From assembly GCA_050012475.1 (NCBI GenBank), contig JBEKHC010000091.1, positions 1-20,465 of the forward strand: a DNA stretch of 20,465 nt. The letters are read 5' to 3'. The notes beneath the pieces were generated by a model. The model was not told where the DNA came from, did not search any database, and saw only the letters and a list, made by a program, of their open reading frames with translations. Source of the DNA: Candidatus Velthaea sp. (GTDB taxonomy: Bacteria; Vulcanimicrobiota; Vulcanimicrobiia; Vulcanimicrobiales; Vulcanimicrobiaceae). Positions within the stretch are counted from its first letter, which is position 1. The number at the start of each line of letters is the position of its first letter. Of the stretch, positions 447-17,250 are shown piece by piece. A program made the translations under genes and the position numbers.

Positions 447-719
447 GTGAGCTCAATTTTCTCAATCACGACCGTTGCCGTTATCGTCGTTGCGACATTC
501 GTCGCCACAAGAGTCCTCGACAAACGCGCTGCTGAGAAGGCCGCCCGCGAGTCAACGCTCGCGCGGCACCAAGCGTATCACGACCCGCGTTTTCGCATAG
601 CCGCCTTGTGCCCGGAGTGCATTCACGACGCAAGTCACCGGACGATCGATCCCAACTGCCCGCATTGCGTCCAATTTTCGCCGGCCGCCGGGTCAAACAC
701 GGTGTCCGCCGCCGCCTAA
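447..719 (+). CDS. Small membrane-anchored protein with two CxxC motifs (putative Zn-binding)
   Basis: GAGG upstream of GTG; hydrophobic N-terminus IFSITTVAVIVVATFVA; CPEC...CPHC plus several His; stop overlaps the convergent gene's stop by 4 bp. Confidence 0.65.
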   Translation: MSSIFSITTVAVIVVATFVATRVLDKRAAEKAARESTLARHQAYHDPRFRIAALCPECIHDASHRTIDPNCPHCVQFSPAAGSNTVSAAA

Positions 720-1534
720 GCAGCGGGACGTCGGCCGGCCAAAAATCGCTCGCAGGCAGCGGCAAATTTCCCGAACGCGCTGCGTTGCAGCGTATGGCCT
801 TCGCCGACGAACACCTCGATCGTCACGTTCGGACCGCCGTGCTCGCGCACGAAAGCCAAGTCGGCAGGGAAGATCACCGAATCGCTCGGATCGGCCACCG
901 GCAAGTACAACGGCTTCGGGTAGTCGCGCAGCGCTTCGCGCAGATCCCACGTACCGGCGTCCGCGCCGTTTTCCGCGCCCAGCGCTTCGAGCGTTTCGAT
1001 GCGCATCGATTGCATCGCGTGCACCTTCGCGTCGATCTCGAGCGGTACGGCGCCGGCGAACAGCGCGCGAATCGCTGGGGCCCGCTCTGCCGGCGGTATC
1101 GCCAGCACGTCCCGCACATCGTCGACGAAATCCGCGGCCCACGCGCCCGGCGCCTGATGGATCATCGGATCGATCGCGACGACCCGTTCGCAGGCGATGC
1201 GCCGCCCGCCCAAAATCGCGACCGCCCCGCCCCACGAATGTCCGAGCAGCCCGCGAATGGGACCGTCGAGGCTCGCGGCAACCGCCGCGAGATCGGCCAG
1301 GCTTCGTTCGAGCGTCAGCGGTCCGCGCACGCCCGCCGAATCGCCGTGACCGCGCTGATCGTAGGCCACGACGCGATAGCTCGAGGCGAAATAATCGGCC
1401 GTCCGCATCCACATTTTGCGCGAACTGGTGATCCCGTGAACGCAGAGCAAGATCGGGCCGGTGCTGCCCCATTGCTCGACGGCGGTGACCGCGCCGTCGC
1501 CGAGCTGCACGTGCCGGGCTCCCGATGCGATCAC
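716..1534 (-). CDS. Alpha/beta fold hydrolase (esterase-like)
   Basis: Oxyanion motif VHGITSS, YDQRGHGDS, nucleophile elbow GHSWGG, C-terminal His (GEGHTL); ATGA overlap with upstream gene. Confidence 0.9.
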   Translation of the reverse strand: MIASGARHVQLGDGAVTAVEQWGSTGPILLCVHGITSSRKMWMRTADYFASSYRVVAYDQRGHGDSAGVRGPLTLERSLADLAAVAASLDGPIRGLLGHSWGGAVAILGGRRIACERVVAIDPMIHQAPGAWAADFVDDVRDVLAIPPAERAPAIRALFAGAVPLEIDAKVHAMQSMRIETLEALGAENGADAGTWDLREALRDYPKPLYLPVADPSDSVIFPADLAFVREHGGPNVTIEVFVGEGHTLQRSAFGKFAAACERFLAGRRPAA

Positions 1535-2418
1535 GCCGGCTGACGGCTCTTGAACGTGAGTTCCGAGATCCCTGATTTGTCGAGCTGACCCAAGCCGCGT
1601 TTGACCATCTCGTCGTATTGCGCTTTGGTCGCAGCCGCCAGCGGCAGATCGAGCCCTTCATCCCTGGCCAGCTGCAGCGCGATGCCCGAATCTTTGGCCG
1701 CGTGTTCGGCGCTGAAATACGCCTCGTGATCGTGCTTTTGCATGTCTTCGCCGTCGGTTTCGAGCACGCGCGAATTTGCGCCCGTTTGCGAGAAGACTTC
1801 ACGCAGCATCGTTAGATCCAAGTCGAGCGCATCGCATAAGCCCAGCGCCTCGGCCAGCCCCGCGGTGTTGATGTTCATGAGCATGTTGATGAGCGCCTTG
1901 ACTTGCGCGGCTTTCCCCGGACCGCCGACGAACTTGAGCGATACCGACATCTGTTCGAGGATCGGCTTGATCGCCTCGAACGCATCCTCGTCGTTGCCGC
2001 AGATAAGGTACAGCTTGCCGTCGCGCGCCTGCGGGATCGAACTCGCCATCAGCGTCTCGACCGTTCGCGCACCGGCCGCCGCCGCCCGTTCGGCGGCTTC
2101 GACGTGCACGGCCGGCGTAATCGTCGCGCAATTCACGAAGATCTTGCCCCGCGCACCGGTCAGCAGCGAGTCTCCGCTCGGCGCGAAAATCGTGCGCATC
2201 GCGTTGTCGTCGGTGACGACCGTGATGATGACGTCGGCGTTTGCCGTGACGTCGGCGAGCTTCGCACAGCCGGCAGCGCCCAGCTCTTTAGCCAGCTCGG
2301 CGACTCGGTCCGGGGCGACATCGTACACTGCGGTGATCGGATATCCGACATCCTTGAGATGCCGGGCAATGTTGGCACCCATCCGGCCGATGCCCACGAC
2401 CCCAATGCGTTCTTTCAT
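1531..2418 (-). CDS. NAD(P)-dependent oxidoreductase, beta-hydroxyacid dehydrogenase (3-hydroxyisobutyrate dehydrogenase/GarR-like) family
   Basis: GVVGIGRMG Rossmann motif, catalytic Lys region GKAAQVKALIN, KDSGIA motif; GGGGGAG RBS. Confidence 0.9.
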   Translation of the reverse strand: MKERIGVVGIGRMGANIARHLKDVGYPITAVYDVAPDRVAELAKELGAAGCAKLADVTANADVIITVVTDDNAMRTIFAPSGDSLLTGARGKIFVNCATITPAVHVEAAERAAAAGARTVETLMASSIPQARDGKLYLICGNDEDAFEAIKPILEQMSVSLKFVGGPGKAAQVKALINMLMNINTAGLAEALGLCDALDLDLTMLREVFSQTGANSRVLETDGEDMQKHDHEAYFSAEHAAKDSGIALQLARDEGLDLPLAAATKAQYDEMVKRGLGQLDKSGISELTFKSRQPA

Positions 2419-2481
2419 CTCTCCCCCAAAGAAGCGTTCGCGATTGCCGGCGGTCCGCCGGTCTCGAAAACGGCGCGAGCT

Positions 2482-2916
2482 TTATTTCAGGTGCTGACGG
2501 GCGGCATGCGTGCCGTCGACGAGCGCCGGCCGCATCGCTGTGGCGAGCTCGTCGAGCCCGACACAGATCGCGTCGTAGTCGCCTTTGTAGCCGATGTCGT
2601 ACGGGCCGGAAATCTTGCCCGTCGCGACGTCGACGACGCTGGCGTTCGCCGTCCAAATCATCGCCATGTGACGCGTCGCCGAACTGAAGACGACCCGCGA
2701 CAGATGGCGGGCTTCGCCGACCTGCCGCGCGCACGCAGCGTCGCTGCAGGTGACCGCGACGTAGCGCGCCGGCGTACCGGCTGCGCGCAGGTCGTGCGCG
2801 AGCCGGCTGCCGAGTGCTCGCAGCTCCGGGGACGTCGGCGTTACGGCGTAATCCAGCCCCGGATCGCCCGGAGCGAAGGTGAGAACGCCGACGATGAGAC
2901 CCACAACGGCGAGCAT
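2482..2916 (-). CDS. DUF3280/DUF2380-like protein
   Basis: Pattern CSDAACARQVG...VVFSSATRHMAMIWTANASVVDVATGKI...DIGYKGD resembles my recollection of DUF3280/DUF2380; 13 bp downstream of the cytochrome c. Confidence 0.6.
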   Translation of the reverse strand: MLAVVGLIVGVLTFAPGDPGLDYAVTPTSPELRALGSRLAHDLRAAGTPARYVAVTCSDAACARQVGEARHLSRVVFSSATRHMAMIWTANASVVDVATGKISGPYDIGYKGDYDAICVGLDELATAMRPALVDGTHAARQHLK

Positions 2917-2929
2917 GTTGGTGATCCGC

Positions 2930-3355
2930 TTATTTCAATGATTGCACGACAGTCGGCGACTTCAACGCACCGTCGTAGGTCAACGCTTTGCCGGCCTTGT
3001 AGCCGTTGAAGTGCAGAATGTACGCCATGATCGAGACATACTGGTCGTGCGTCAAGCTGGCCGGCTCGTTGAGCGGCATCTGCTGCGAGATGAATGTGAA
3101 CATGTCGCCCACGGTCAGTTTCGTATTCTTGGCCAGCGTGTTGAGCGTTGCCCCGGTGAGCGCCGGCCCGGCGCCGCCTTCGAGATGTTCACCGTGGCAG
3201 GCCGAGCATTTCGCTGCGAAGAGTTTGTCACCGGCAGCGGCTTGCGCGGCACTATAGCTGACGCTCGATGGCGGCGTCCCCGACGCCGCCATCGAGCCCA
3301 GGCCGATCGCGATTGCGGCCACGATGGGCCAAGTTCCCGAGACTCTTCCGGTCAT
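2930..3355 (-). CDS. Exported class I monohaem cytochrome c (probable electron acceptor of the PQQ dehydrogenase)
   Basis: Hydrophobic signal-like N-terminus, CSACH haem motif, GPAL, candidate axial Met in QQMPL; AAGGA RBS. Confidence 0.9.
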   Translation of the reverse strand: MTGRVSGTWPIVAAIAIGLGSMAASGTPPSSVSYSAAQAAAGDKLFAAKCSACHGEHLEGGAGPALTGATLNTLAKNTKLTVGDMFTFISQQMPLNEPASLTHDQYVSIMAYILHFNGYKAGKALTYDGALKSPTVVQSLK

Positions 3356-3386
3356 TCCTTGCTTTCCGTAACTGTCTGGTAGCGGT

Positions 3387-3845
3387 TTACTTGGTCGTCT
3401 GCGCGTGCAGTTCGTCCAAGTCTTCGAGCATGTTGAGGGTTACGGCATCCTTGATGCCGGCGTCTTTGAGTCCGCTTGCCGCACGCATCTGCGCGGCGAG
3501 TTCGTCGGAATGATGGTACCCGCGCACGGCCGCATTGTGTTTCTCGATCGTCGCGGCCGGAATGTTTCCGCCGTTCTTTTCCAAGACCCAGGCCTCGAAT
3601 TGCACGTATGTCGGCTTGCGCTCGGTCACGAAGGCGATGACCTCGTCGCGCTTGAGATTCAAGCCATCGATCGTCATTTGATCGAAGCCCGCACCCGCAG
3701 AGTCATAGCCATCCTGCAGTTTTCCCGCCGCCGCCAAGGTCAGTTTCGTCCAAAGTCGCGGCAGATGAATGGCACCCAACGGCCCGGCAGTGCCTGAGCT
3801 GATCAGCGGAACGGTCTTCGTGCTGCTGGTTACGCTGCTGGTCAT
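3387..3845 (-). CDS. DUF5069-like cytoplasmic protein
   Basis: GPLGAIHLPRLWTKLTLAAAGKL...GY...GFD...FEAWV...LDE pattern recalled for DUF5069; strong GGAGGGG RBS; no signal peptide. Confidence 0.7.
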   Translation of the reverse strand: MTSSVTSSTKTVPLISSGTAGPLGAIHLPRLWTKLTLAAAGKLQDGYDSAGAGFDQMTIDGLNLKRDEVIAFVTERKPTYVQFEAWVLEKNGGNIPAATIEKHNAAVRGYHHSDELAAQMRAASGLKDAGIKDAVTLNMLEDLDELHAQTTK

Positions 3846-3897
3846 AATGCTTATTTCCCCTCCAAGGTTGTGTGAAGTGACGCCGGAATCGGCGCGG

Positions 3898-4713
3898 TTA
3901 TCCGGGACTTTCGGGCTTGTAAAGCTTGACGCCGTACCGGGTCAGGATCGCCGTCAAGTCGGGTTTGTTGCGTGAAATGACCGAGTTGAGTTGAGCAGCG
4001 AGCGCGGTGTTGCCTTTCTTCACCCCCATCGCCATTGGAAACGCATACTGCTCGGGTGAACCCAGCGAGCGCGTGTTTGGGACGGTAACGACCGCCACGT
4101 CGGGACGTTTCTGGAGATAGTAGCCGATCGCGGGCTCCCAGGTGATGCCCACGGCGATCTTGCCCGCCTGCAACGCGTCGAGCATCTCTTCGGGCGACGC
4201 CCCTTCGGTGTCGCCGACATCGAACACCGTCGAATGCAGAATGAGCGCGCGCATCTGCAAACCCGTCTGCGCGGGCGTGTCCGCCTCGAATCCGATGCGC
4301 AGTTTTTTGAGCACCGGTGAATCGAGCGACGAGATCGGATAGTTCTTGCTCTTGGGATAGATGAAGACGTACGACGAGATATAGTAGGGGTCGGTCGCCG
4401 TAACGTTTTCACTCGCGTACGGGACGTTGACGACGACGTCGCACTTGCCCGTATTGAGATAATCGTGGATGAACTGATCGTAGCCGCCGCTGCCGCGCAT
4501 CGACGCCCACGTGTACTGCACGGACGTCCCCAGCCGATGCGCAACCTGCTCGGCGATCTTGTTCTCGAAGCCCTGGCCGGCGCGATTCGAGAACGGCATG
4601 TAATCGGGGTCGGCGCAGACGCGCAATGGTGCCAGCGCGTGAGCCGGAAGGCTCGGGGTGAAGAGGAGCGTCGCGGCGGTGAACGCCGCCGCGACGCCGG
4701 AACGCCAACGCAT
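3898..4713 (-). CDS. xoxJ: MxaJ/XoxJ-family periplasmic substrate-binding protein
   Basis: True start is ATG 4713 (TGATG overlap with the xoxF stop), not 5085; signal peptide ...PAHA; LRVCADPDYMPFSN...GFENKIA, PYYISSYVF, MGVKKG motifs. Confidence 0.9.
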   Translation of the reverse strand: MRWRSGVAAAFTAATLLFTPSLPAHALAPLRVCADPDYMPFSNRAGQGFENKIAEQVAHRLGTSVQYTWASMRGSGGYDQFIHDYLNTGKCDVVVNVPYASENVTATDPYYISSYVFIYPKSKNYPISSLDSPVLKKLRIGFEADTPAQTGLQMRALILHSTVFDVGDTEGASPEEMLDALQAGKIAVGITWEPAIGYYLQKRPDVAVVTVPNTRSLGSPEQYAFPMAMGVKKGNTALAAQLNSVISRNKPDLTAILTRYGVKLYKPESPG

Positions 4714-6485
4714 CAGAGCGAGAAGACCAACAAGTCGCCGCCGAGTTGCGTGTAGCTCGCCAAGTCCTGCGCCGCGTTGACGGCTCCCAGACCGGCAGTG
4801 GGTTCGGTCAAGCCCGCCGCGAGCCCAAGCGCGGCCCAGCCGCCGACGCCCGAGAGGATCGCGACATACTGATGACCGGCATGCGTGTAGGTGATCGGGT
4901 TGCCGATGATACCCGACGGGGTGTGGAAGCGCCACAGTTCTTTGCCGTCTTTGGTGTTGATGGCTTTGAACCAGCCGTCCATCGTGCCGTAGAACGCGAC
5001 GCCGCCCTTGGTGGAAAGCGTCCCGCCCCAAGCCGGGAACAACTCGTGATCGCTCCAAACGATCTTGCCGTTGATCGGATCCCACGCTTCGACTGCACCG
5101 CGATAGTTGCCCGGACCCGGATACATCTTCACGATGGCGCCGACGAACGGGAACCCGCCTTTGTACTTCACGGCGAAGGCTTTGTAGTCCATGCAGTTGT
5201 GGTTGGTCGGGACGATGAAATAGCCGGTCGTTTCATCAAACGATGCAGGCTGCTGATCCTTGCTGCCCATGGCAGCGGGGCAGATGCCATGTACGTTGAC
5301 GCCGGCCTTGGTGCCGTATTTGGGATCGAGAACCGGCCGGCCGGTTGTCATGCTGATGCTCGTCGCCCAATTGACGTCGTTATCGAACTTATGCGCCAAG
5401 AGCAGCTTGCCGTTGCGGCGGTCCAGTTCGTAGGCGAAACCGTTGCGGTCGAAGTGCACCAGTGCCGGAATCGTTTCGCCGTTCATGTTGAGATCGACGA
5501 GAATCATCTCGTTGATGCCGTCATAGTCCCACGCGTCGTGCGGCGTCATTTGATAGGCCCACTTCGCCGCACCGGTGTTGGCGTCGCGCGCGAAGATGGT
5601 CATCGACCATTTGTTGTCGCCCGGCCGCTGGGTCGGATTCCACGTTCCCGGATTCCCCGTGCCGTAGTAAATCAGGTTGAGTTTGGGATCGTACGAATAC
5701 CAGCCCCAGGTCGTGCCGCCGCCGACTTTCCAGGCGTCGCCTTGCCAGGTCGAAACACCGGCATTCTTGGGTCCGTTGAATCCGGCCGGGATCAAAGTTT
5801 CGCTGTCCGGACCCGCGCTGTACGCGCGCCAGACGCGCTTCCCGGTCGAGAGGTTGAGCGCCGTCAAGTAGCCGCGCACGCCGTATTCGCCGCCCGACAC
5901 GCCGACGATGACTTTGTCATTGACGACCAGCGGGGCGGACGTTACCGTCTGCCCGAGTTCGGGATTCGCGTTCTTGGTGTTCCAAATCGGCTTTCCCGAC
6001 GCAGCGCTCAGCGCGATGATCTGGCCGTCGAGCGCGTCGACGATGATCTTCCCGTCGCCGTAGGCGACGCCGCGGTTCACCAGGTCACAGCACGCAACCG
6101 AGGTGGCGAAGGGGTCTTGTTTCGGCGTGAACTGCCACTTGATGTGATAGTCCGACAGATCGATCGCATACACGTGGTTGGGGTAGGCGCTCTCGAAATA
6201 CATCGTGTCGCCGATGACGAGCGGCTGGCCTTCGTGCCCGCGCGTCGCACCGGTCGACATCGTCCAAGCCGCCTTGAGGTTGGCTACGTTGTCGGTTTTG
6301 ATCTCATCGAGTTCGCTGAAGCGCAGATTAGCGTAGTTCTGGCTGGGCATCACCCATTGGCCGGCATTCGACGACATGTCGTTGAGCGCGACCTTCTGCT
6401 GTGCCACGACCCGCTGCGCCAAACCGCCGCCGCCGAGCACGAGAACGGCGGCCGCGATGCCGATGGCTAGAGCTTTTCGCTTCAT
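4713..6485 (-). CDS. xoxF: PQQ-dependent methanol/ethanol-family dehydrogenase, lanthanide-dependent XoxF type
   Basis: Start at ATG 6485 (MKRKALAIG signal peptide, 590 aa); RGHEGQPL, vicinal CCD, GGEYGVRG, GTGNPG, WDYDGINE with the extra Ln-binding Asp. Confidence 0.92.
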   Translation of the reverse strand: MKRKALAIGIAAAVLVLGGGGLAQRVVAQQKVALNDMSSNAGQWVMPSQNYANLRFSELDEIKTDNVANLKAAWTMSTGATRGHEGQPLVIGDTMYFESAYPNHVYAIDLSDYHIKWQFTPKQDPFATSVACCDLVNRGVAYGDGKIIVDALDGQIIALSAASGKPIWNTKNANPELGQTVTSAPLVVNDKVIVGVSGGEYGVRGYLTALNLSTGKRVWRAYSAGPDSETLIPAGFNGPKNAGVSTWQGDAWKVGGGTTWGWYSYDPKLNLIYYGTGNPGTWNPTQRPGDNKWSMTIFARDANTGAAKWAYQMTPHDAWDYDGINEMILVDLNMNGETIPALVHFDRNGFAYELDRRNGKLLLAHKFDNDVNWATSISMTTGRPVLDPKYGTKAGVNVHGICPAAMGSKDQQPASFDETTGYFIVPTNHNCMDYKAFAVKYKGGFPFVGAIVKMYPGPGNYRGAVEAWDPINGKIVWSDHELFPAWGGTLSTKGGVAFYGTMDGWFKAINTKDGKELWRFHTPSGIIGNPITYTHAGHQYVAILSGVGGWAALGLAAGLTEPTAGLGAVNAAQDLASYTQLGGDLLVFSL

Positions 6486-6571
6486 GAAAATACCCCGTAT
6501 GTCCGGCGGGCTAAGAAAAGTCCGCTGACTGAAGGTAGTCGCGGATGAGATTTGCAGCAAGTCGACCGTTC

Positions 6572-6600
6572 AGTGTAGGTGCAAAATGCCTTTACAAGAA
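6572..6600 (-). promoter_or_regulatory. Possible xoxF promoter: -10 TACACT with weak -35 TTCTTG
   Basis: TACACT (6577..6572) 17 bp from TTCTTG (6600..6595) in the AT-richer divergent intergenic region. Confidence 0.3.
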
Positions 6601-6680
6601 AACCAAGCAAAGTTGAAAGTTTGTTCCCGCTTCGGCTGTCAAGCCACCACCCGTCCTCCGGCGTCTTAAGGCGAGAATAC

Positions 6681-7346
6681 ATGCAACCATCAACGGTGTC
6701 GTCGTCCGGGCTGGCGACGATCCACCTGGCAATCGTGGCAGAAAACAACGTCACGCGCGAGGCGCTCACGGCGGTCTTGCGCGAGGACCCGGAGATCGCC
6801 GTCATGGGATCGGCATCCGACATCACGGGCGCGGAGGCATTTCTCGAACGGCCGGAACTGCAAGTCATGCTCGTCAACATGAGTCTGGGCGCGGAGGGCC
6901 GGCCGGCGACCGGACTGGAGCTCATCGAGCGATGTAAAGCGCGCCGGCCGGATGTCGGCGTGCTGTCGCTCAAGCACGTCATCGATGAATCGCTGCTGCG
7001 CGCTGCACTCGTCGCCGGCGCCGACGCGTGCTGTCTGGCGACGACGCCCCAAGCTCGTCTCCTCAAGGCCATCAAAGCGGTCGCCGAGGGCGCGACGTGG
7101 CTGGACCCGGAGATTTCGCGCGTTCTGCTGCATCCGCGCGAGCTACCTGCCGCTCCGCACCTTTCGCCGCGCGAACGGGCAATTTTGCGGCTGATCGTCG
7201 ACGGTTATTCGAACGGCGAAATCGCCGGCCGCCTCGACTGCGCGACGGCGACGGTGCACACGCACGTCCTCAATCTGTTCCGAAAGTTAGGCGTGCACGA
7301 TCGGGTCAGTGCCGCCGTGTCAGCGCTGCGCTGCGGTCTGGTTTAA
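6681..7346 (+). CDS. NarL/LuxR-family response regulator with degenerate (aspartate-less) receiver domain
   Basis: ATG 6681, 221 aa; HTH LSPRERAILRLIVDGYSNGEIAGRL...TVHTHVLNLFRKLGVHDR; REC-like N-terminus. Confidence 0.9.
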   Translation: MQPSTVSSSGLATIHLAIVAENNVTREALTAVLREDPEIAVMGSASDITGAEAFLERPELQVMLVNMSLGAEGRPATGLELIERCKARRPDVGVLSLKHVIDESLLRAALVAGADACCLATTPQARLLKAIKAVAEGATWLDPEISRVLLHPRELPAAPHLSPRERAILRLIVDGYSNGEIAGRLDCATATVHTHVLNLFRKLGVHDRVSAAVSALRCGLV

Positions 7347-7413: not shown

Positions 7414-8382
7414 TTACAGACCCTTCACCGTCGCTCGAACGGCGCTGCGCGCGGCAATGTTGCCGGCGGAAACGACGTCGCCATGCAGGCCGAAGCGTTC
7501 GAGCACGTCGCGCGCCGCGTCATATGGATCGCTTGCCGGGTCGAGCGCTCCAAGCTCTCGCTCGATTCGCGCTTCGAGCGCGCCCAGGGCCAGCGCGCGG
7601 ACCCGATGCGCAAACGCCGCGCGCCGCTTCTCGGTTATCTCACCGGTCGTTTTCAAGTAACGATCGTGCTCGACGATCGCCGCCCAGAGCGCATCGATTC
7701 CTTTGCCGGTTACGGCTTGCGTTGCGACCAGGGCCGGAACCCAGCCGCTGAACTGCAACATCTCCATCATCGACCGGACCTCGCGCTGCAGTTGCAAGGC
7801 CATCGGGTGATCGCTCTTGTTGACCACGAACACATCGGCGATTTCCAAGATGCCGGCTTTGAGCACTTGTACCGAATCACCGCTACCCGGCTGCAGCGCG
7901 ACGAGCGTCGTGTCCGCGATCTCCGCAATTTCGATCTCCGACTGACCGACGCCGACCGTTTCGACGATGATGACGTCTTTGCCAAACGCGTCCATGAGCG
8001 ATACGGCGTCGGCGGTCGCACCCGAAACGCCGCCTAAGTGTCCGCGGCTGGCCATCGAACGAATGAACACGTCGGGGTCGACGAAGTGCTCGGTCAGCCG
8101 AATGCGATCGCCCAGCAACGCGCCGTGCGAAAAAGGAGAACTGGGATCGACCGAGATGACGCCGACGGTTTTCCCGAGTTTGCGAATGAACGCGACGAGC
8201 GCCGAGCACAACGTCGACTTGCCCACCCCGGGCGGCCCGGTCAGACCGACGGTCATTGCGCGTCCGGTTCGCGGATACAGGGCCCGGATCAGATCGGCTC
8301 CGTGGCCCGACTCGCAAAGCGAAATCGCGCGGGCGAGCGCACGCGTACGACCGGCGTAGAAATCGCTCAGCAGTTCATCCAT
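7414..8382 (-). CDS. meaB: Methylmalonyl-CoA mutase-associated GTPase MeaB/ArgK
   Basis: GLTGPPGVGKST P-loop, VDPSSPFSHGALLGDRIR, FIRSMASRG, VETVGVGQSE, NKSD; likely start ATG 8382. Confidence 0.93.
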   Translation of the reverse strand: MDELLSDFYAGRTRALARAISLCESGHGADLIRALYPRTGRAMTVGLTGPPGVGKSTLCSALVAFIRKLGKTVGVISVDPSSPFSHGALLGDRIRLTEHFVDPDVFIRSMASRGHLGGVSGATADAVSLMDAFGKDVIIVETVGVGQSEIEIAEIADTTLVALQPGSGDSVQVLKAGILEIADVFVVNKSDHPMALQLQREVRSMMEMLQFSGWVPALVATQAVTGKGIDALWAAIVEHDRYLKTTGEITEKRRAAFAHRVRALALGALEARIERELGALDPASDPYDAARDVLERFGLHGDVVSAGNIAARSAVRATVKGL

Positions 8383-8502
8383 CGGCGGCAACGCTTTCGG
8401 CGCCGCCGTTCGCGCTACTCCGCAACGCAGCGCTCAAACGGCGAAATGTGGCGGCCGGGCGGCGGCGGGACGCCTCGGACGCATCGCCAATGCCCGAACC
8501 CA

Positions 8503-11500
8503 ATGACCGCTCTGGGATACCATCGCACTCCGCACCTCGCACGCGAACTGCTCGTTTTTGTTACCGAAGACGATATTTGGACCGCTTCGACGGACGGCGG
8601 AATCGCCCGCCGTTTGACCACCAGTGCCGGCGAATGCTCGCTGCCACGGCTCTCGCCGGACGGGTCGGCGGTCGCCTTCGTCGGTCGCGATGAAGGGCAT
8701 CCCGAGGTCTTCGTCATGCCGTCGATCGGCGGACCGCCGCACCGCATCACCTTTTTGGGCGCCGAAGCGCTCTATGTTTGCGGCTGGTCGGCCGACGGCA
8801 GCGAGGTCTTCTTCACTTCGGACGCCGCATCGCCGTTCATCAAAGAGACCAACGCTTTCGCCGTCTCGGCGAGCGGCGGCCCGGTGCGAGCGCTCAACAT
8901 CGGCCATGCGATGTCATTCGCGGTCGCCGCCGGCGGCGCGATGCTCATCGGACGCAACGCCATCGACCCCGCGCGCTGGAAGCGCTATCGCGGCGGAACG
9001 GCCGGGCAGCTTTGGGTCGACGGGACGGGGAGCGGCGCATTCACCCGGGTGGGCCGCGACGTCGCCGGCAATCTCGTGTGGCCGATGTGGGTCGGTTCGC
9101 GCGTCTTCTTCCTTTCCGATCACGAAGGCGTCGGCAACATCTATTCCTGCGCGCCCGACGGCGCCGATCTGCGCCGTCATACCGACGAGCGCGAGTATTA
9201 CGCCCGCTTTCCATCGACCGACGGCCGCCGGATCGTCTACGCCTGCGGTGCCGAGATCGTGATCCTCGATCCGGCCGACGACAGCATCCGGCGCGTCGAA
9301 CTGCAGACTCCCTCGACGGCACCGCAAAGCGCGCGCCGGTTCGTCGAGGCCGGCGATCTGCTCGAAGCCTTTGCCCCGTCCCCCGACGGCACGTCCCTGG
9401 GGCTCATCTCACGCGGCCGAGCCTTCGCAATGCCGCTCTGGGAAGAAGCCGTCACCGAATACGGCGCCGAAGACGGCGCGCGGCGGCGCCATTTCACCTG
9501 GCTGCACGACGGAACGCGCATCGCCTACGTCGACGATTCAGCGGGGTTCGAGCGGATTGCCGTCGAGCCCGCCGATCGCAGCGCGGCGCCAGATCACTTC
9601 AGCAGCGCGAACGTCGGCCGCATCACCGAACTGATCGCTTCGCCGGTCGACGACACCTTGGCGTTTGCGAACCACCGCCATCAGCTCATGGTGATCGCCC
9701 CCGGCAAAGAACCGCGGCTGCTCGACACGAGCAGCGGCTGGCGAATAACGGACCTGGCTTTTTCTCCCGACGGGCGCTTCATCGCCTACGCCTGGTCGCC
9801 CGCGCACGACACCTCGATCATCCGGATCGTCGACTTGACCGACGACCAGGTGTACGATGCGACGTCGCCGCTGCGGACCGACCGCGCTCCGGCTTGGGAT
9901 CCGCAGGGGAAATATCTGTATTTCATTTCGACCCGCGACTTTCACCCGGTCTATGACGCGCTGCAATTCGACCTGAGTTTTCCTCAAGCGATGCGGCCCT
10001 TCGTGGTCACGCTGCGGGCCGACGTCCCCAATCCGTTCGTCGCCAAACCGGCGCCGATTCATCGCGCCAAAGACGACGACGAAGACGACGATGCGGAAAA
10101 GGCGGACGCACCGGCGCCGATCACGATCGATTTCGCCGGCTTGCCGCAGCGCATGCTCGGATTTCCGGTCGACGAAGGCCACTACGAGCAAATCGCCGGC
10201 GTGAAGGGGCGCGTGGTTTTCAGCCAATTCCCGGTGCGCGGCATCCAGCCGCATGCGCGGGGCAGCGACGAGTCCGAGCACGGCGGCACGCTCATGGCGT
10301 ACGATTTCACCCAGCAGCGCTCGGCGACGCTGGTGCGCGACATCGACGATTTCCGGGTCGGCGCCGACGGCCGCACCCTGGTCTACGCATCGCGCGAACG
10401 GCTGCGCGTGATCGACGTCGGCGCCGACCTGCCCGAAGACGAAGAGGAACCCAAAGCGCCGACCGAGTTCAACCGGCGCAGCGGATACCTCGATTTAGGC
10501 CGCGTCAGTGTCCTGGTCGAACCGCGCAGCGAGTGGCGCCAAATGTACGCCGAAGCCTGGCGCCTGCAGCGCGAGCAGTTTTGGGACGAAGGGATGTCGG
10601 GCGTCGACTGGGACGCGGTCTACGCGCGTTACGCGGCGCTGCTGCCGCGGCTGCGTACGCGGGTCGAACTTTCCGATCTGATTTGGGAAATGCAAGGCGA
10701 GCTGGGGACCTCGCACGCGTACGAGATCGGCGGCGATTTTCGCGTTCCGCCCCAATACCGGCGCGGCTTCTTGGGGGCCGACTACGTTTGGGACGAGGGC
10801 GCGGGCGGCTACCGCATCACGCGCATCTACCGCGGCGACTCCTGGGATCGCGAACTGGATTCGCCGCTCGCCGAACCGGGGCTGGACGTTCGCACCGGCG
10901 ATGTCATCGTCGCGCTGGGCGGACGCAGCGTCACCCGCGAGGTCACGCCGGACTCGCTGCTCGTCAACGTCGCCGCCCGCGACATCAGTTTGACGCTCAT
11001 GCGCGACGAAGAACGGCGGCGGGTCTTCGCCCGCACGCTGCGCGACGAACGGATGCTGCGCTACCGGGCTTGGGTCGAAGAAAACCGGCGGGTCGTCCAC
11101 GACCGCACCGGCGGCCGCGTCGGATACGTGCACATTCCGGACATGGGCCCGTGGGGCTTCGCCGAATTTCACCGCGGCTTTTTATCCGAGTTCAACTTGG
11201 CGGGCCTGATCGTCGACGTGCGCTACAACCGCGGCGGGCACATCTCGCCGCTGCTGCTCGAGAAGCTGGCGCGGAAGCGCGTCGGCTACGACGTCTCGCG
11301 GTACGGACCGCCGGTGCCGTATCCGCCCGAATCCGTGGCCGGCCCGATGGTCGCGCTGACCAACCAGTTCGCGGGCTCCGACGGCGACATCTTCAGCCAT
11401 TGCTTCAAGCTCTACGGGCTGGGACCGCTCATCGGGATGCGCACCTGGGGCGGCGTCGTCGGCACCAACCCCTACCATCGGCTCGTCGACGGGACGCTGA

Positions 11501-11751
11501 CCACTCAGCCCGAGTACTCGTTCTGGTTCAGCGACGTCGGCTGGGCGGTGGAGAACTACGGCACCGACCCCGACGTCGAGATCGACATCGCACCGCACGA
11601 AGCGACGCGCGGCACCGACCCGCAGATGGAGCGCGCGCTGGAAACGATCATGGCCGAACTGCGCGATCGGCCCGAGCGACAGCCATTCGGACCGCGGCCG
11701 CGTTTGCCGCTGCCGCGCCGCGGCTTGGCGAACATCGCTGAGGAAGGTTGA
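8503..11751 (+). CDS. Tricorn protease homologue (S41 family; beta-propellers, PDZ, catalytic domain)
   Basis: Likely start ATG 8503 (MTALGYHRTP); WKRYRGG, GELGTSHAY, GYVHIPDM, DVRYNRGG, catalytic AGSDGD, GMRTWGG; no signal peptide. Confidence 0.93.
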   Translation: MTALGYHRTPHLARELLVFVTEDDIWTASTDGGIARRLTTSAGECSLPRLSPDGSAVAFVGRDEGHPEVFVMPSIGGPPHRITFLGAEALYVCGWSADGSEVFFTSDAASPFIKETNAFAVSASGGPVRALNIGHAMSFAVAAGGAMLIGRNAIDPARWKRYRGGTAGQLWVDGTGSGAFTRVGRDVAGNLVWPMWVGSRVFFLSDHEGVGNIYSCAPDGADLRRHTDEREYYARFPSTDGRRIVYACGAEIVILDPADDSIRRVELQTPSTAPQSARRFVEAGDLLEAFAPSPDGTSLGLISRGRAFAMPLWEEAVTEYGAEDGARRRHFTWLHDGTRIAYVDDSAGFERIAVEPADRSAAPDHFSSANVGRITELIASPVDDTLAFANHRHQLMVIAPGKEPRLLDTSSGWRITDLAFSPDGRFIAYAWSPAHDTSIIRIVDLTDDQVYDATSPLRTDRAPAWDPQGKYLYFISTRDFHPVYDALQFDLSFPQAMRPFVVTLRADVPNPFVAKPAPIHRAKDDDEDDDAEKADAPAPITIDFAGLPQRMLGFPVDEGHYEQIAGVKGRVVFSQFPVRGIQPHARGSDESEHGGTLMAYDFTQQRSATLVRDIDDFRVGADGRTLVYASRERLRVIDVGADLPEDEEEPKAPTEFNRRSGYLDLGRVSVLVEPRSEWRQMYAEAWRLQREQFWDEGMSGVDWDAVYARYAALLPRLRTRVELSDLIWEMQGELGTSHAYEIGGDFRVPPQYRRGFLGADYVWDEGAGGYRITRIYRGDSWDRELDSPLAEPGLDVRTGDVIVALGGRSVTREVTPDSLLVNVAARDISLTLMRDEERRRVFARTLRDERMLRYRAWVEENRRVVHDRTGGRVGYVHIPDMGPWGFAEFHRGFLSEFNLAGLIVDVRYNRGGHISPLLLEKLARKRVGYDVSRYGPPVPYPPESVAGPMVALTNQFAGSDGDIFSHCFKLYGLGPLIGMRTWGGVVGTNPYHRLVDGTLTTQPEYSFWFSDVGWAVENYGTDPDVEIDIAPHEATRGTDPQMERALETIMAELRDRPERQPFGPRPRLPLPRRGLANIAEEG

Positions 11752-11803
11752 CACCAAGCGCCCGACCCGTGAATTTTTGCTCTCAACGCGGCAATCGTAA
11801 GCG

Positions 11804-13099
11804 ATGCTGACGACGCTCGCGGCGGGAATCTTCGTGCCGCTGCTCCTGATCCTGTGGAGCGGCAAAGGCCCCGTGCGGCGTTCGCCCTGGCCCGCGATTG
11901 CGGTTCTGCTCTGGTACGGCTCCGGACTGGTGCGCGCCGCCGCCGCGAACGTGCGCGCACCGCGCGAGTGGGACTTCGCTTGCTTCTGGCTGTACGGGCA
12001 TCTGGCCGCCGGCCATCAAAACATCTACGATCCCGCCGCTTTCGCCCGGTTCGCCTCGCCCTTCGCGACGAGCGACGAGTTCCGGCTGGCGGTCTTGAAC
12101 GTCGGCTTTCCGTACCCGCCGCCGACGATCGCGCTGTTCTATCCGCTCGGCTACGCGACTTCGGTGCCGGTCGCGTTGGCCGTTTGGTACACGGCGCAGT
12201 TCGCTGCGTTGGCCGCAGCCGCATGGATCCTGGCCCGCCTCTTCTTCCCCGCCGATGGCCGGCGCGCGGGGCTGTTGCTGCTCGCGATCGTTGCGGCGCT
12301 GCCGGCCACGCTGCAAACCGTCGACAACGCGCAGACCAACTTCATCGTGTTGCTGCTCGTGGCGCTGGCCTTACGCGACCGCGACGCTCCGGGCGGAGCC
12401 GTTTGGGAAGTGCTCGCGCTGTGGGTGAAACCGTACGCGGCCGCGCTCCTGCTCTTCGACGCCGTCTGCGGCCGCCGCCGGCGGCTGCTGACGGCGCTCG
12501 GCGCCGCAGCGCTCAGCTTCGCCGGCGCAGCGCTGCTGCTGGGTCCCGCAGCTCTGGCCGCCTACGTGCATTCCAACCCGTCGTCGCGCGAACCGGCCTT
12601 CGCTTTTACCGAACAAGTGAATCAATCGCTCTTGGCGTTGGTTTTGCGGATGCACGCGATGCCCCGGGTGCACGTTTGGGCGCTGGGCGAGCCGCTGTTC
12701 GTAGCGGCGTCGCTGGTTTTGGCGAGCGTGACAGCCGTGATGTGCGCTCGAACAACCCACCGAAGCGAGGCAGGATTCGCCGTTGTCCTCCTGCTAGGCT
12801 TGATCGTGTATCCCGGCACGCTTAGCTCCTACGGGGTCATCCTGGCCATCCCGTTCTTGGTTTTGTGGCGCAATCGAACGGCATTCCCCGGCGGATCAGC
12901 GACGGTCGCGGCGATCCTCTTCGCCGCCGTCGTGCTGCAAGGCGGGGTCGTGCAACGATCCTTCGCGGCCTACGTCTTGAGCTGGGCTGCCTGCCTTTAT
13001 CTGCTGCTCGTCGCCCAGCCCGACGGCCACGATGCGATGGAGAGGCCGAAGAACTCGCTGGCCGCCGCGACGACCGCTGCCGGCGCAGGGGGGGTATGA
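11804..13099 (+). CDS. GT-C fold membrane glycosyltransferase, family 87 (DUF2029)-like
   Basis: Many hydrophobic segments; DFACFW, FPYPPP, AQTN, KPY and NQSL motifs. Confidence 0.8.
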   Translation: MLTTLAAGIFVPLLLILWSGKGPVRRSPWPAIAVLLWYGSGLVRAAAANVRAPREWDFACFWLYGHLAAGHQNIYDPAAFARFASPFATSDEFRLAVLNVGFPYPPPTIALFYPLGYATSVPVALAVWYTAQFAALAAAAWILARLFFPADGRRAGLLLLAIVAALPATLQTVDNAQTNFIVLLLVALALRDRDAPGGAVWEVLALWVKPYAAALLLFDAVCGRRRRLLTALGAAALSFAGAALLLGPAALAAYVHSNPSSREPAFAFTEQVNQSLLALVLRMHAMPRVHVWALGEPLFVAASLVLASVTAVMCARTTHRSEAGFAVVLLLGLIVYPGTLSSYGVILAIPFLVLWRNRTAFPGGSATVAAILFAAVVLQGGVVQRSFAAYVLSWAACLYLLLVAQPDGHDAMERPKNSLAAATTAAGAGGV

Positions 13100-13749
13100 C
13101 GATCTCGCTCCTCCCGCGCCAGGCACTGCTCAAAACGGGCGACGTCGACCACGCCGCCTGGAACTACGACGGTCTGCTCGGATACGTCTCGCGGCAGCGA
13201 TTCGCCCTGGTTCGTTCACTGCTGTCCGAGCGCCGCGCCGGCAAACTCCTCGAAGTCGGCTACGGCAGCGGCGTGTTTTTTCCCGAACTCGCCAAGCATG
13301 CCGACCAGCTGTATGGTGCGGATATCCATCAGCAGACCGCCGAGGTGACCGCGGTGTTGGCCCAGGCCGGCGTCGATGCCCAACTGGTGACGGCGTCCGC
13401 CGAGGCGCTGCCCTTTCCCGACGCGATGTTCGATGCGATCGTCGCGGTGAGCGCTTTCGAGTTCTTTCCCGACGCAGGCCGCGCCATCAACGAGCTTGCC
13501 CGTGTGCTGGCCCCCGGCGGCCGGATCATCGTGGTCACGCCGGGCCGCAGCCCGCTCTTGGACTTGGCGCTGCGTATCTTCACCGGCGAGTCGGCCGCCA
13601 AAGACTTCGGTGATCGCCGAGAACGCATCGTCCCGACGTTGACGCGCGCAATGCGGCACCTGCGGTCCATCTTTTTTCCCTTCCGCTTTGGGGTCCCGAT
13701 CTATCGCGCACTGCTGCTGACCAAGAACGGCGAACGCCTGATGGAGTGA
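13096..13749 (+). CDS. Class I SAM-dependent methyltransferase
   Basis: ATG 13096 (ATGA overlap with GT87 stop); LLEVGYGSG, SAEALPFPDAMFD, RVLAPGG. Confidence 0.88.
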   Translation: MTISLLPRQALLKTGDVDHAAWNYDGLLGYVSRQRFALVRSLLSERRAGKLLEVGYGSGVFFPELAKHADQLYGADIHQQTAEVTAVLAQAGVDAQLVTASAEALPFPDAMFDAIVAVSAFEFFPDAGRAINELARVLAPGGRIIVVTPGRSPLLDLALRIFTGESAAKDFGDRRERIVPTLTRAMRHLRSIFFPFRFGVPIYRALLLTKNGERLME

Positions 13750-13770
13750 GCATCCTCAATCGGGCGAAAT

Positions 13771-13799
13771 TTGACGCTGGGGCTGAATTTTGATAGGAT
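13771..13799 (+). promoter_or_regulatory. Sigma70-type promoter of the infC-rpmI-rplT operon
   Basis: TTGACG - 17 bp - TAGGAT. Confidence 0.8.
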
Positions 13800-13808
13800 C
13801 ACCGGGCC

Positions 13809-13928
13809 GAAGCAGAACCGCGTGGTTCTCACCGGATGCCCTCGGGCGATCCGGTTCTACTGTTCGCCAACCGTTTTTGTCAACGGTTTGTCATGAGCGG
13901 GGTGCTTCGGCATCGCCGCTTTTTTATT
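13809..13928 (+). ncRNA. Ribosomal protein L20 leader-like cis-regulatory RNA
   Basis: GAAGCAGAACC-gcgt-GGTTCTCACC followed by hairpin 13831-13855, hairpin 13869-13888 and a terminator, directly upstream of infC-rpmI-rplT. Confidence 0.7.
13896..13928 (+). terminator. Intrinsic terminator (attenuator) in the infC leader
   Basis: AGCGGGGTGC-TTCG-GCATCGCCGCT followed by TTTTTATT. Confidence 0.75.
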
Positions 13929-13953
13929 CCACGATTTTGCCGGAGGGCAAGCC

Positions 13954-14607
13954 ATAGCACGACCGCTTCGTATCAACGATCAGATTCGCATTCGCACCGT
14001 CCGCGTCATCGACGAGGACAGCCAGCAGCTCGGTGTCATGCCAACCGAGAACGCGCTTTCGTTGGCCCGTCAGAAGGGACTCGATCTCATCGAAGTCTCG
14101 CCAACCGCGGTCCCACCGGTGTGTCGAATCAGCGACTACGGGCGTCTAAAGTACGAGCAGTCCAAGAAAGACAAAGACGCGCGCAAAAAGCAGAAAAACT
14201 GGGAATTGCGCGAGGTCAAGTTACGGCCCAAGATCGAGACGCACGACTATGAAGTCAAAGCCCGCATGGCCGAACGGCTGCTGCAGGACGGCGGCAAAGT
14301 CAAAGTGACGATCATGTTCCGCGGCCGCGAGATCACCTACACGTCGTTCGGCAAACGGCTCCTGGACCGGATGGCCGCCGACATGTCGAACATCGCGATT
14401 CTCGAGCGCGAGGCGAAACTCGAAGGCAAGAACATGTTTATGATCTTGGCGCCGCGCGCGGTGCCGCTGGGGCCGCCGAAATTCACCCACGTGAAAGATT
14501 CGGCGGTCGAGGCTGCAGCCAAGAAGGACGCGGAAGAGGAAGCCGAGGCCGAGGAATCACCGGCGCAAGCGGTTCCCGCCGGGACCGCCGCATCCGAAAC
14601 AGTCTGA
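13954..14607 (+). CDS. infC: Translation initiation factor IF-3 (non-canonical ATA start)
   Basis: GGAGG 13942-13946, 7 nt before in-frame ATA; extension encodes conserved RINDQIRIRTVRVID; DLIEVSP, DYGRLKYEQSKK, KVKVTIMFRGRE. Confidence 0.95.
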   Translation: MARPLRINDQIRIRTVRVIDEDSQQLGVMPTENALSLARQKGLDLIEVSPTAVPPVCRISDYGRLKYEQSKKDKDARKKQKNWELREVKLRPKIETHDYEVKARMAERLLQDGGKVKVTIMFRGREITYTSFGKRLLDRMAADMSNIAILEREAKLEGKNMFMILAPRAVPLGPPKFTHVKDSAVEAAAKKDAEEEAEAEESPAQAVPAGTAASETV

Positions 14608-14632
14608 ACACAACACAACGTCGGGAGAAGTC

Positions 14633-14839
14633 ATGCCGAAGATCAGAACCCATCGGGGGACCGCAAAACGCGTGAAGGTGAGTGCGAACGGAAAAGTGAT
14701 GCACCGTCACCAGTTCAGCGGCTGCGGTCATATCCTGAGCAAGAAGACCCGTAAGCGCAAGCGGAATTTCCGCAAGGACCAGCCCGTTTTCGCCGGTGAT
14801 CTCAAGCGCTTTGCGCCGCAGATTCCGTACTTGCTGTAA
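14633..14839 (+). CDS. rpmI: 50S ribosomal protein L35
   Basis: MPKIRTHRGTAKRVKVSANGK...HILSKKTRKRKR; position between infC and rplT. Confidence 0.97.
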   Translation: MPKIRTHRGTAKRVKVSANGKVMHRHQFSGCGHILSKKTRKRKRNFRKDQPVFAGDLKRFAPQIPYLL

Positions 14840-14853
14840 GGGGGACATGATCG

Positions 14854-15228
14854 ATGGCACGTATCAAACGCGGCGTTCACGGACTCAAACACCGCCGCAA
14901 GGTCATGAAGCTCGTCAAGGGTTTCCGCGCCGCCCGGCGGCGGAACTACCGGGTCGCGAACGAAGCGCTGCTGCACTCGCTGGCCTATGCGTTTCGCGAC
15001 CGGCGCGTGCGCAAACGTGATTTTCGCTCGCTGTGGATCTCGCGCATCAATGCTGCCGCCCGGCGCGAAGGTTTGTCGTACTCGCGCTTCATCGCCGGCT
15101 TGAAAAAGGGCGGCGTGACGGTCAATCGCAAGGCCCTGGCCGATCTCGCCGTGCACGACGCCGCGGCGTTCGCGCAGCTCTTGTTGCTGGCGAAGAATTC
15201 GCTGGGCGGCGAAACCGCGGCTGCCTGA
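14854..15228 (+). CDS. rplT: 50S ribosomal protein L20
   Basis: MARIKRG...YAFRDRRVRKRDFRSLWISRINAA...NRKALADLA. Confidence 0.98.
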   Translation: MARIKRGVHGLKHRRKVMKLVKGFRAARRRNYRVANEALLHSLAYAFRDRRVRKRDFRSLWISRINAAARREGLSYSRFIAGLKKGGVTVNRKALADLAVHDAAAFAQLLLLAKNSLGGETAAA

Positions 15229-15250
15229 GCCGCCACGCGTACCGGACCCC

Positions 15251-15289
15251 ACGAACGAGGTGCAGCGCGCGCCTCGTTCGTTTTTTTTT
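15251..15289 (+). terminator. Intrinsic terminator of the infC-rpmI-rplT operon
   Basis: ACGAACGAGGTGC / GCGCCTCGTTCGT stem followed by a T-run. Confidence 0.9.
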
Positions 15290-15332
15290 CCGAAGCGTCC
15301 GGCGGCGACGGATTCATCGTCGACGGATGCGC

Positions 15333-15920: not shown

Positions 15921-15991
15921 GGCATACCTCCGCTGCCGCTTACCGCAGCGGCCCCGAAAAGTAACGCGCGCCGCGATGCGCAGTTGAGGCG

Positions 15992-16870: not shown

Positions 16871-17250
16871 GAAACGTCGCCCGCCAGCGCGATCAGCGCA
16901 AACCGCCGCTCGTCGTCCGCGAGCGCCTGCGCCTCAATCGCCTTACGCAGCGTCGGCAATCCGTCGCGCACGAACGCCCGCGCGGCGGACTCCTTCGTGT
17001 CGGCGATTGCCCGCAACAATTGCAGCGCGTCGTCGACCGCCCGCGCGACGCCGTCGCGAATCGCGCGTTCGGCCTGCGCCGCCGGAACCGGCGTGCCTGC
17101 TGTGTGCGTCGCCAACATCAAGACGTAATCCAGCGCCGCCGCCGATGCCAACAGCTGCGGCGCTTGCCGCGCGATCTCGGCCTGCGCGCGATACTCGCGC
17201 ACGCCGCCCATGAGCAATGCCTGCAAATCGACGACGTCGCGCGGGTTCAT
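16864..17250 (-). CDS. Hypothetical Ala-rich helical protein
   Basis: Fills the gap between the Nudix and hydrolase genes in the same direction; 7-bp overlap with the downstream gene. Confidence 0.65.
   Translation of the reverse strand: MNPRDVVDLQALLMGGVREYRAQAEIARQAPQLLASAAALDYVLMLATHTAGTPVPAAQAERAIRDGVARAVDDALQLLRAIADTKESAARAFVRDGLPTLRKAIEAQALADDERRFALIALAGDVSW

Follow-up and report, generated by a model that had tools for sequence, protein, structure and literature searches.

A module of DUF5069, dehydrogenase and hydrolase genes linked to xoxF in Eremiobacterota and its possible role in formaldehyde oxidation

Where would formaldehyde made by a lanthanide-type methanol dehydrogenase go in a bacterium in which the canonical genes for oxidizing it are mostly not found? 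This question is raised by a 20,465-nt contig of Candidatus Velthaea sp. (JBEKHC010000091.1; hereafter, the window, meaning the whole stretch analyzed), whose host is placed in Eremiobacterota by homologue names and has a genome of 5.36 Mb that is 93.8% complete. Positions 716 to 6485 on the (−) strand hold seven open reading frames (ORFs) in the order xoxF-xoxJ-DUF5069-cytochrome c-DUF3280-like-bHAD-hydrolase, where bHAD denotes a beta-hydroxyacid dehydrogenase; DUF5069, bHAD, and the alpha/beta hydrolase are referred to together as the trio. We found that the trio forms a real, conserved, and apparently undescribed module that falls outside the Frm, Msc, tetrahydromethanopterin (H4MPT), or tetrahydrofolate (H4F) systems. 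The explanation that we prefer, tentatively and as a possibility that stops short of probable, is that the trio oxidizes a formaldehyde adduct to formate in the cytoplasm, beside the XoxF/XoxJ/cytochrome c unit. The basis in hand consists of the genes themselves, their linkage, natural fusions, the missing canonical genes, and the strong constitutive expression of orthologues in Methylacidiphilum fumariolicum SolV. No description of DUF5069 or of a bHAD/xoxF module was found in the literature searched, with subscription papers and bioRxiv supplements lying outside that search; the accessible portions of the supplements of PMC8024496, PMC7768010, and PMC7907005 have no rows for trio terms, and the accessible text of PMC9758169 mentions neither xoxF nor formaldehyde.

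An earlier, sequence-only reading of the window had described seven co-oriented genes with no U-tailed terminator between them, three of them without signal peptides, and a divergent regulator. Every ORF and every gap was reproduced exactly (−1, 52, 31, 13, 63, and −4 bp between consecutive cluster genes), with the xoxJ start overlapping the xoxF stop and the hydrolase start overlapping the bHAD stop. No terminator-like site was found between cluster genes on the (−) strand in a scan of the window, which gave 7 sites in all versus a shuffle mean of 7.9, so that the promoter and terminator scans are to be read as chance level. Judged by a hydropathy proxy, which is not a signal-peptide predictor, the N-termini of XoxF, XoxJ, cytochrome c, and the DUF3280-like protein are hydrophobic, and those of DUF5069, bHAD, and the hydrolase are not, in agreement with the three genes named earlier.

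The first gene, xoxF (4713 to 6485, (−) strand), encodes a lanthanide-type pyrroloquinoline quinone (PQQ) methanol dehydrogenase of 590 aa (TIGR03075, 670.9 bits) that keeps the vicinal Cys132-Cys133 pair and has D320-Y-D322 (WDYDG at 319) as its lanthanide D-x-D, a motif present in 30 of 33 related matches, the other three not covering that region. Its best match in the PDB is a XoxF (6oc5, 733 bits), followed by 4mae (709), 6dam (700), the MxaF 1w6s (633), and 7o6z (565). By the Cys pair, the D-x-D, and these matches, the protein is XoxF, and lanthanide-dependent methanol oxidation is predicted for it. The XoxJ-like periplasmic binding protein (271 aa; 3898 to 4713, (−) strand) scores 210.5 bits for TIGR03871, which is 1.7 bits under the family cut-off of 212.15. 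We found no XoxG/MoxG cytochrome cL orthologue in the cluster, which has instead a monoheme class I cytochrome c (CSACH at 50; 141 aa; 2930 to 3355, (−) strand) that matches PF13442 with 44.7 bits and the MoxG model TIGR03872 with 36.3 bits (cut-off, 147.8); it is likely the XoxG-equivalent electron acceptor. The 144-aa protein encoded at 2482 to 2916 ((−) strand) would be an optional accessory and owes its DUF3280-like label to its homologues, five of six of which match PF11684 (best E-value, 1e-6), while it has no such match itself.

Like the xoxF-xoxJ-xoxG cluster of SolV (Mfumv2_1183-1185), the window combines a XoxF carrying the lanthanide Asp with XoxJ and a c-type cytochrome, and pqq, fdh, and RuBisCO genes lie elsewhere in the genome. 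In contrast to canonical xoxFJG clusters, its cytochrome falls far under the MoxG cut-off, three co-oriented signal-less genes are included, and the regulator lacks the phospho-Asp. Clusters of xoxF3 with other hypothetical genes have been described (PMC10875860). Three more PQQ dehydrogenases, 33–41% identical to XoxF, are encoded on contigs C5, C22, and C65 of genome G000, two of them adjoining a similar cytochrome c.

XoxF1 gives formaldehyde in vivo (PMC6414531), and formaldehyde oxidation in verrucomicrobial methanotrophs is not fully understood, with FolD/FtfL or a Zn alcohol dehydrogenase as candidates (10.1101/2022.08.24.504922; PMC3404531). The window genome encodes PqqC, formate dehydrogenase, RuBisCO, and a single FolD. 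At 93.8% completeness, it yielded no Fae, Fhs, or GshB (Hps/Phi, MshA, and Mch were not searched), and FrmA, MscR, FdhA, PurU, and BshA stayed below cut-off, the best FrmA/MscR candidate reaching 294–295 bits versus cut-offs of 544 and 513. Neither an H4MPT nor an H4F route (Fae; or FolD with Fhs or PurU) was thus found in this genome. Among enzymes for low-molecular-weight thiols other than the BshA and GshB just mentioned, EgtD scored over its cut-off (EgtB, like MshA, was not searched), and a GFA match on contig C74 was over cut-off but partial, at 32 positions. In the other xoxF genomes (40 of 44 scanned, all incomplete, so that genes are not found rather than proven missing), FrmA over cut-off and Fae were each found in 0 of 40 and Fhs in 6 of 40. 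The earlier statement that canonical formaldehyde genes are lacking therefore largely extends from the window to its genome and to these relatives. Within the cluster, we found no Zn class III alcohol dehydrogenase of the FrmA/MscR type, the enzyme there being PF03446/PF14833, and no Gfa (PF04828 Zn-Cys domain), the small protein matching DUF5069 only; an FrmB/FghA model was not among the 16 NCBIfam families matched at E ≤ 0.001.

Compared with the thiol-dependent systems, i.e., Gfa + FrmA + FrmB (glutathione) and MscR + Fmh (mycothiol; PMC10950700), the trio shares the proposed adduct, NAD-linked oxidation, and hydrolysis to formate, a third partner that is an alpha/beta or MBL hydrolase, and a DUF5069-GFA fusion in two proteins, and by this analogy the module may work as they do. 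It differs in that its dehydrogenase is a bHAD rather than a Zn class III enzyme and that DUF5069, unlike Gfa, has the 3OMD fold, with GshB not found in the window genome. With the FolD + FtfL tetrahydrofolate route (10.1101/2022.08.24.504922; PMC3404531), it would share the formaldehyde-to-formate step, but Fhs was found in only the 6 of 40 genomes above and not in that of the window.

Linkage to xoxF, proposed earlier as a test of the module, proved to be conserved. In a phylum sample of 357 Eremiobacterota genomes at least 80% complete (the tallies include unpublished genomes), xoxF occurs in 45 and a bHAD orthologue in 259. Two of the 45 (48–49% identical) were left out of the copy counts, which used 44 copies at ≥69% identity; five of these were uninformative (four at contig ends and one not fetched), and 37 of the 39 informative copies are followed downstream by a bHAD gene in the same orientation. 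The earlier caveat that the last two genes could be unrelated neighbours is thereby refuted for bHAD. At 26 xoxF loci with ≥3 kb downstream (seven shorter loci were excluded), we counted DUF5069 in 26, xoxJ and cytochrome c in 25 each, bHAD in 24, the hydrolase in 11, and the DUF3280-like gene in 5; the bHAD value is biased upward because 10 of the 26 loci were fetched around bHAD, which makes 37/39 the fairer figure. One genome (G059, locus L018) is counted among both the 26 loci and the 37 copies, and the conclusions are the same without it. The common order is xoxF-xoxJ-bHAD-DUF5069-cytochrome c, reshuffled in the genus of the window, and the cassette occupies three chromosomal settings (meaB/mcm, rpoB/rpoC, and gdh/pqq/egtD).

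The trio is nevertheless near-core in the order without xoxF, and the idea of a methanol-specific module is not supported: the hydrolase tracks bHAD and not xoxF, adjoining bHAD in 25 of the 32 bHAD loci that lack xoxF (DUF5069 does so in 21) but being present at only 11 of 26 xoxF loci. An alternative that we regard as unlikely is that the trio does housekeeping work that has nothing to do with XoxF chemistry and that a single arrival of xoxFJ upstream of it, in the ancestor of the order, created a link that has been inherited since. In the bHAD tree (65 rows), copies linked to xox are interspersed with unlinked ones, and the two kinds several times form sister pairs with strong support, a pattern expected if descent was vertical and xoxFJ was lost repeatedly; at two loci (L056 and L059), pqqBCE and the trio are retained and xoxFJ is missing, and the SolV orthologues are expressed constitutively (see below). 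On the other hand, the link persists through the three chromosomal settings and the shuffled gene order in the window genus, and second xox cassettes bring trio genes of their own. Specifically, genome G146 has two bHAD copies, of which the xox-linked one, with its DUF5069, groups with other xox copies (100/99) while the other lies elsewhere; G301 has a second xoxF with DUF5069 directly after it; and G236 keeps xoxF-xoxJ-DUF5069-cytochrome c together, with bHAD and the hydrolase elsewhere. The four small verrucomicrobial xoxF genomes described next, all with bHAD and DUF5069, also argue against mere inheritance.

Beyond the phylum, the bHAD subfamily matches ~3600 stored GTDB stretches; the best 80, mostly from Verrucomicrobiota, were examined and include 74 non-Eremiobacterota loci. 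In these 74 loci, xoxF never stands beside bHAD, and DUF5069 lies near it in 20 (co-oriented, divergent, convergent, or fused). The third neighbour is a hydrolase with helix-turn-helix (HTH) and MBL parts that resembles GloB in 31 loci, another alpha/beta hydrolase (28–31% identical to the window hydrolase over part of its length) in 11, and both in none; FdhD is present in 7. Hydrolase partners drawn from unrelated families would suit a step in which an acyl-X product is cleaved. In the thiol-dependent systems, too, FrmB has the alpha/beta fold and Fmh the MBL fold.

Among 266 sampled Verrucomicrobiota genomes, bHAD occurs in 40 and DUF5069 in 15, all 15 within the 40; a xoxF-type gene is present in five, all with bHAD and four with DUF5069, and FrmA in one, which is without bHAD. 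These genomes include kin and are not independent, so that the small hypergeometric values overstate the co-occurrence. The four small xoxF genomes (G403, G457, G475, and G496) have all three components, with the MBL gene directly upstream of DUF5069, and their bHAD and DUF5069 are 60% and 51% identical to the window proteins; in G475 and G496, bHAD lies <3 kb from xoxF. As for the logic of activating protein, dehydrogenase, and hydrolase proposed by the sequence-only reading, the layout is found again in a second phylum, where the hydrolases are unrelated, but DUF5069 lacks a conserved Cys and does not resemble Gfa.

The DUF5069 protein of the window (152 aa; 3387 to 3845, (−) strand) is predicted to be the aldehyde-binding or carrier partner of bHAD. 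It scores 25.8 bits for PF16798 (cut-off, 27), its close homologues are named DUF5069, and its Atlas score is 0.97; its model (pLDDT 95) has a sole fold match, 3OMD, a functionally uncharacterized Leptospirillum protein (Z 14.9; root-mean-square deviation, 2.6; 131 aligned), with no second match above Z 5.3 and no sequence match in the PDB. By sequence and fold, it is a DUF5069 protein. Residues H27, R30, W32, K34, Y47, D55, and E84 are kept in >90% of 37 diverse sequences, none of which share a conserved Cys, and the window protein has no Cys at all. A role as Cys carrier was rejected: Cys50 occurs in 93 of 120 close homologues but in only 9 of 34 broad ones and is missing from both the window protein and the Methylacidiphilum-type protein. 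A Cys relay between DUF5069 Cys50 and bHAD Cys123 was likewise rejected, as there is no clean co-variation.

In-frame bHAD-DUF5069 fusions occur in both phyla (P0122, P0131, L082, and L162), and the predicted model of the natural fusion L162 has a pLDDT of 84.5, a pTM of 0.59, and a disordered linker; an apparent triple fusion (P0300) was discarded for its frameshift-ridden translation, as were P0129 and P0138. DUF5069 is also fused to GFA (two proteins, P0136 and P0199), amidohydrolase, GAF (three), and ArsR-type HTH domains and occurs as tandem repeats. The tandem repeats and the GAF and ArsR-type fusions, as seen in ligand-binding domains, favor a view that we consider highly improbable, in which DUF5069 is a small-molecule sensor domain or a cytoplasmic binding or storage protein for the XoxF cofactor (lanthanide or PQQ) and both enzymes act on its ligand. 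DUF5069 is also the component most tightly tied to xoxF (26/26) and very abundant in SolV. Yet 10 of 12 single-contig Eremiobacterota genomes with bHAD and no xoxF have it, versus 0 of 12 without bHAD; it tracks bHAD across two phyla, and the fold search gave no metal- or quinone-binding relative. Separately, genome G000 encodes a second, 38% identical DUF5069 (L062:8160-8606, contig C28) downstream of DUF1800-DUF1501 and a TonB-receptor-like gene; this paralogue has no relative in viral contigs. Genome G255 has three tandem-DUF5069 genes.

The bHAD gene (1531 to 2418, (−) strand) encodes a divergent enzyme of 295 aa (PF03446/PF14833) predicted to carry out the NAD-linked oxidation of an aldehyde adduct. 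Its Rossmann motif GxGxMG (GIGRMG) and catalytic Lys174, invariant in 55 sequences, identify it as a member of the beta-hydroxyacid dehydrogenase superfamily, and it has Asp at position 33, which in such enzymes goes with a preference for NAD. With HIBADH/MmsB, tartronate semialdehyde reductase (TSR), and sulfolactaldehyde reductase (PDB 3w6u and 1yb4), it shares the GxGxMG, the Lys, and a C-terminal xxKD, but it differs from them in its substrate loop, ETLMASS (E-x-x-M-A-S-S) instead of the DAPV(S/T)GG of 3w6u, in the extra invariant His231 and His239, and in a C-terminal DKS..E.TF..R. It lies under every named NCBIfam cut-off (124 vs. 341 and 122 vs. 292 bits for HIBADH and TSR), so that by score and loop it belongs to neither family; members are 52–70% identical across the two phyla and form a subfamily of their own. 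Since the loop is replaced, the enzyme probably acts on something other than the named hydroxyacids. No match was found in plasmids at 1e-30. The hydrolase (272 aa; 716 to 1534, (−) strand; PF12697, 76.8 bits), an alpha/beta serine hydrolase predicted to release the acid, has Ser100 (GHSWG), His247, and Asp122, which are conserved in an alignment of 30 sequences.

SolV offers a view of expression in a cultured organism. We assigned its orthologues by synteny and length to the table of PMC5623727, using gene order and lengths in G457 and G475: bHAD is Mfumv2_1191 (897 bp, "mmsB"), the MBL hydrolase is Mfumv2_0873 (816 bp, "gloB"), and DUF5069 is Mfumv2_0874 (441 bp, "phyH"). The "phyH" (phytanoyl-CoA dioxygenase) label looks wrong, synteny and length indicating DUF5069 (cf. 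L257:5215-5652). In reads per kilobase per million (RPKM; H2, CH4/nitrate, and umax, respectively; PMC5623727 Table S1), the values are 11371/20372/6848 for DUF5069, 2968/2914/2984 for bHAD, and 1359/1564/734 for the MBL gene, next to 6220/5291/6041 for xoxF, 10312/4553/9150 for cbbL, 568/665/1342 for fdh2A, 257/173/261 for folD, 396/457/282 for fhs, and 362/338/525 for lpd, upstream of bHAD. The folD/fhs transcripts are thus about 6- to 17-fold below bHAD and about 24- to 118-fold below DUF5069, and DUF5069 is 2- to 7-fold above bHAD, an excess more in keeping with a carrier or scavenger than with an enzyme. In transcripts per million (TPM; acetone, 2-propanol, and methane; PMC12235487), the values are 9720/8210/6843 for DUF5069, 3054/2242/1752 for bHAD, 1276/992/555 for the MBL gene, 2737/2496/5533 for xoxF, and 213/305/160 for folD. 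The methanol induction implied by the sequence-only reading finds no counterpart here, the SolV orthologues not being induced on a C1 substrate in these data. Overall, the level of the trio fits a main flux but is constitutive, which cuts both ways, as xoxF is also high on H2, yet on C3 substrates xoxF declines and the trio does not.

The same data bear on a further alternative, less plausible in our view though worth weighing, in which the substrate of the trio is a C2/C3 compound, either an aldehyde or a hydroxyacid (methylglyoxal, glycolaldehyde, glyoxylate, or tartronate semialdehyde arising in side reactions of RuBisCO). The trio would then accompany xoxF because XoxF makes such aldehydes too or because both serve one lifestyle. 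All three SolV genes have 1.2- to 2.3-fold higher TPM on acetone/2-propanol than on methane, but many other genes also rise ~1.5- to 3-fold on C3 substrates, so that the increase could be background. The expression seen on H2 would suit a link to the Calvin cycle, the verrucomicrobial partner is GloB-like, with Mfumv2_0873 counted among the SolV glyoxalase II copies (PMC12235487), and a GlcD-like FAD oxidase lies near bHAD in 5 of the 74 loci. The nearest named families of bHAD are tartronate semialdehyde reductase and HIBADH; however, it scores far under their cut-offs and has a different substrate loop, and this alternative leaves the presence of DUF5069 at 26 of 26 xoxF loci unexplained.

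For the window itself, four metatranscriptome runs from one study, found with the window stretch, contain 99–100% identical contigs over the hydrolase, bHAD, DUF5069, xoxJ, and xoxF, and one 100% identical contig spans 1467-1667 across the bHAD/hydrolase junction. Contigs also cover infC-rplT, and most of 8005-13340, the regulator, and the 2419-2481 gap are uncovered, which in such contigs cannot show absence. As contigs reveal neither strand nor level nor a single transcript, they are weak support for expression of the cluster.

In the formaldehyde-adduct explanation that we prefer, XoxF would release formaldehyde into the periplasm and pass electrons to cytochrome c. In the cytoplasm, the aldehyde would form a hydroxymethyl adduct (X-CH2OH), trapped by the abundant DUF5069 or on it, where X would be neither glutathione nor a DUF5069 Cys; bHAD with NAD+ would convert X-CH2OH to X-CHO, formally the primary-alcohol oxidation of its family; and the hydrolase would free formate for the formate dehydrogenase and RuBisCO of the genome. 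The trio would then be a housekeeping aldehyde sink, retained after xoxFJ loss and moving with xoxF when the cassette moves. Ergothioneine is a candidate adduct partner, with egtD beside the trio in family f3 and EgtD encoded in the window genome; at the seven f3 loci, egtD comes after the trio together with genes resembling a betaine-type ABC transporter. A bolder version, which we rate as distinctly improbable, would need no small thiol or pterin: the invariant Lys34/His27 site of DUF5069 would trap formaldehyde, bHAD would turn the hydroxymethyl into a formyl group, and an interchangeable hydrolase would release formate. This protein-carried pathway would then be how Eremiobacterota and verrucomicrobial methanotrophs really convert formaldehyde to formate.

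Several observations weigh against the adduct explanation. The trio mostly occurs without xoxF (bHAD vs. xoxF, 259 vs. 45 of 357 Eremiobacterota and 40 vs. 5 of 266 Verrucomicrobiota), and its members part company: the hydrolase is missing at 15 of 26 xoxF loci, and DUF5069 is lacking in 2 of 12 single-contig Eremiobacterota and 25 of 40 Verrucomicrobiota that have bHAD. Both hydrolases are present in 2 of 80 metagenome loci (L208 and L230), and an MBL homologue lies elsewhere in the window genome. In Methylacidiphilum-type genomes, bHAD comes last after the pdh/lpd genes and faces xoxFJG in convergent orientation, and in G403, bHAD is on another contig than xoxF, 1.7 kb from MBL-DUF5069. FolD is present in the window genome, and in vitro, formate is a direct product of SolV XoxF (10.1101/2022.08.24.504922), so that such a route might be unnecessary. 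Finally, trio RPKM in SolV is as high on H2 as on methane, i.e., constitutive rather than C1-induced, and trio TPM, unlike that of xoxF, is not higher on methane than on acetone/2-propanol.

The regulator divergent from xoxF (6681 to 7346, (+) strand) is of the NarL/LuxR type, with ATG 6681 as its most likely start and Asn66 at the usual phospho-Asp position. Among xox-type regulator matches, this position is Asn in 23 of 28 and Asp in 0 of 28, which suggests that the regulator likely works independently of phosphorylation. No kinase gene adjoins it. A TonB-dependent receptor and two small exported proteins recur upstream of the regulator or of bHAD in seven loci, with or without xoxF, and might serve lanthanide or PQQ uptake.

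GC-rich hairpins without U tracts lie at 3846-3897, before DUF5069 (−13.3 kcal/mol), and at 2419-2481, before bHAD (−23.2 kcal/mol); both genes have a strong ribosome site, and these structures may be processing or stabilizing elements. At 447-719 on the (+) strand, a 90-aa ORF with a hydrophobic N-terminus and CxxC...CxxC is convergent with the hydrolase gene and overlaps its stop; it has no Pfam match and no counterpart in related loci, and RNA-library contigs cross it (305-819 and 331-1362). The neighbours at 7414-20290 are meaB, a tricorn protease, GT87, a methyltransferase, infC-rplT, NUDIX, epimerase, and SpoU methylase genes, and the meaB-tricorn order is syntenic in relatives whether xox genes are present or not.

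The locus singles out three genes in a cultured organism, Mfumv2_1191, Mfumv2_0874, and Mfumv2_0873, with transcripts far above those of the proposed folD/fhs route for the formaldehyde step. If the substrate proposed here is wrong, the trio would still be a highly expressed three-gene module. If it is right, the trio would provide the first function for DUF5069 and a non-homologous formaldehyde route in two phyla common in soil and aquatic habitats, and it would suggest that about one in eight Eremiobacterota genomes (45/357) encode lanthanide-dependent methanol use.

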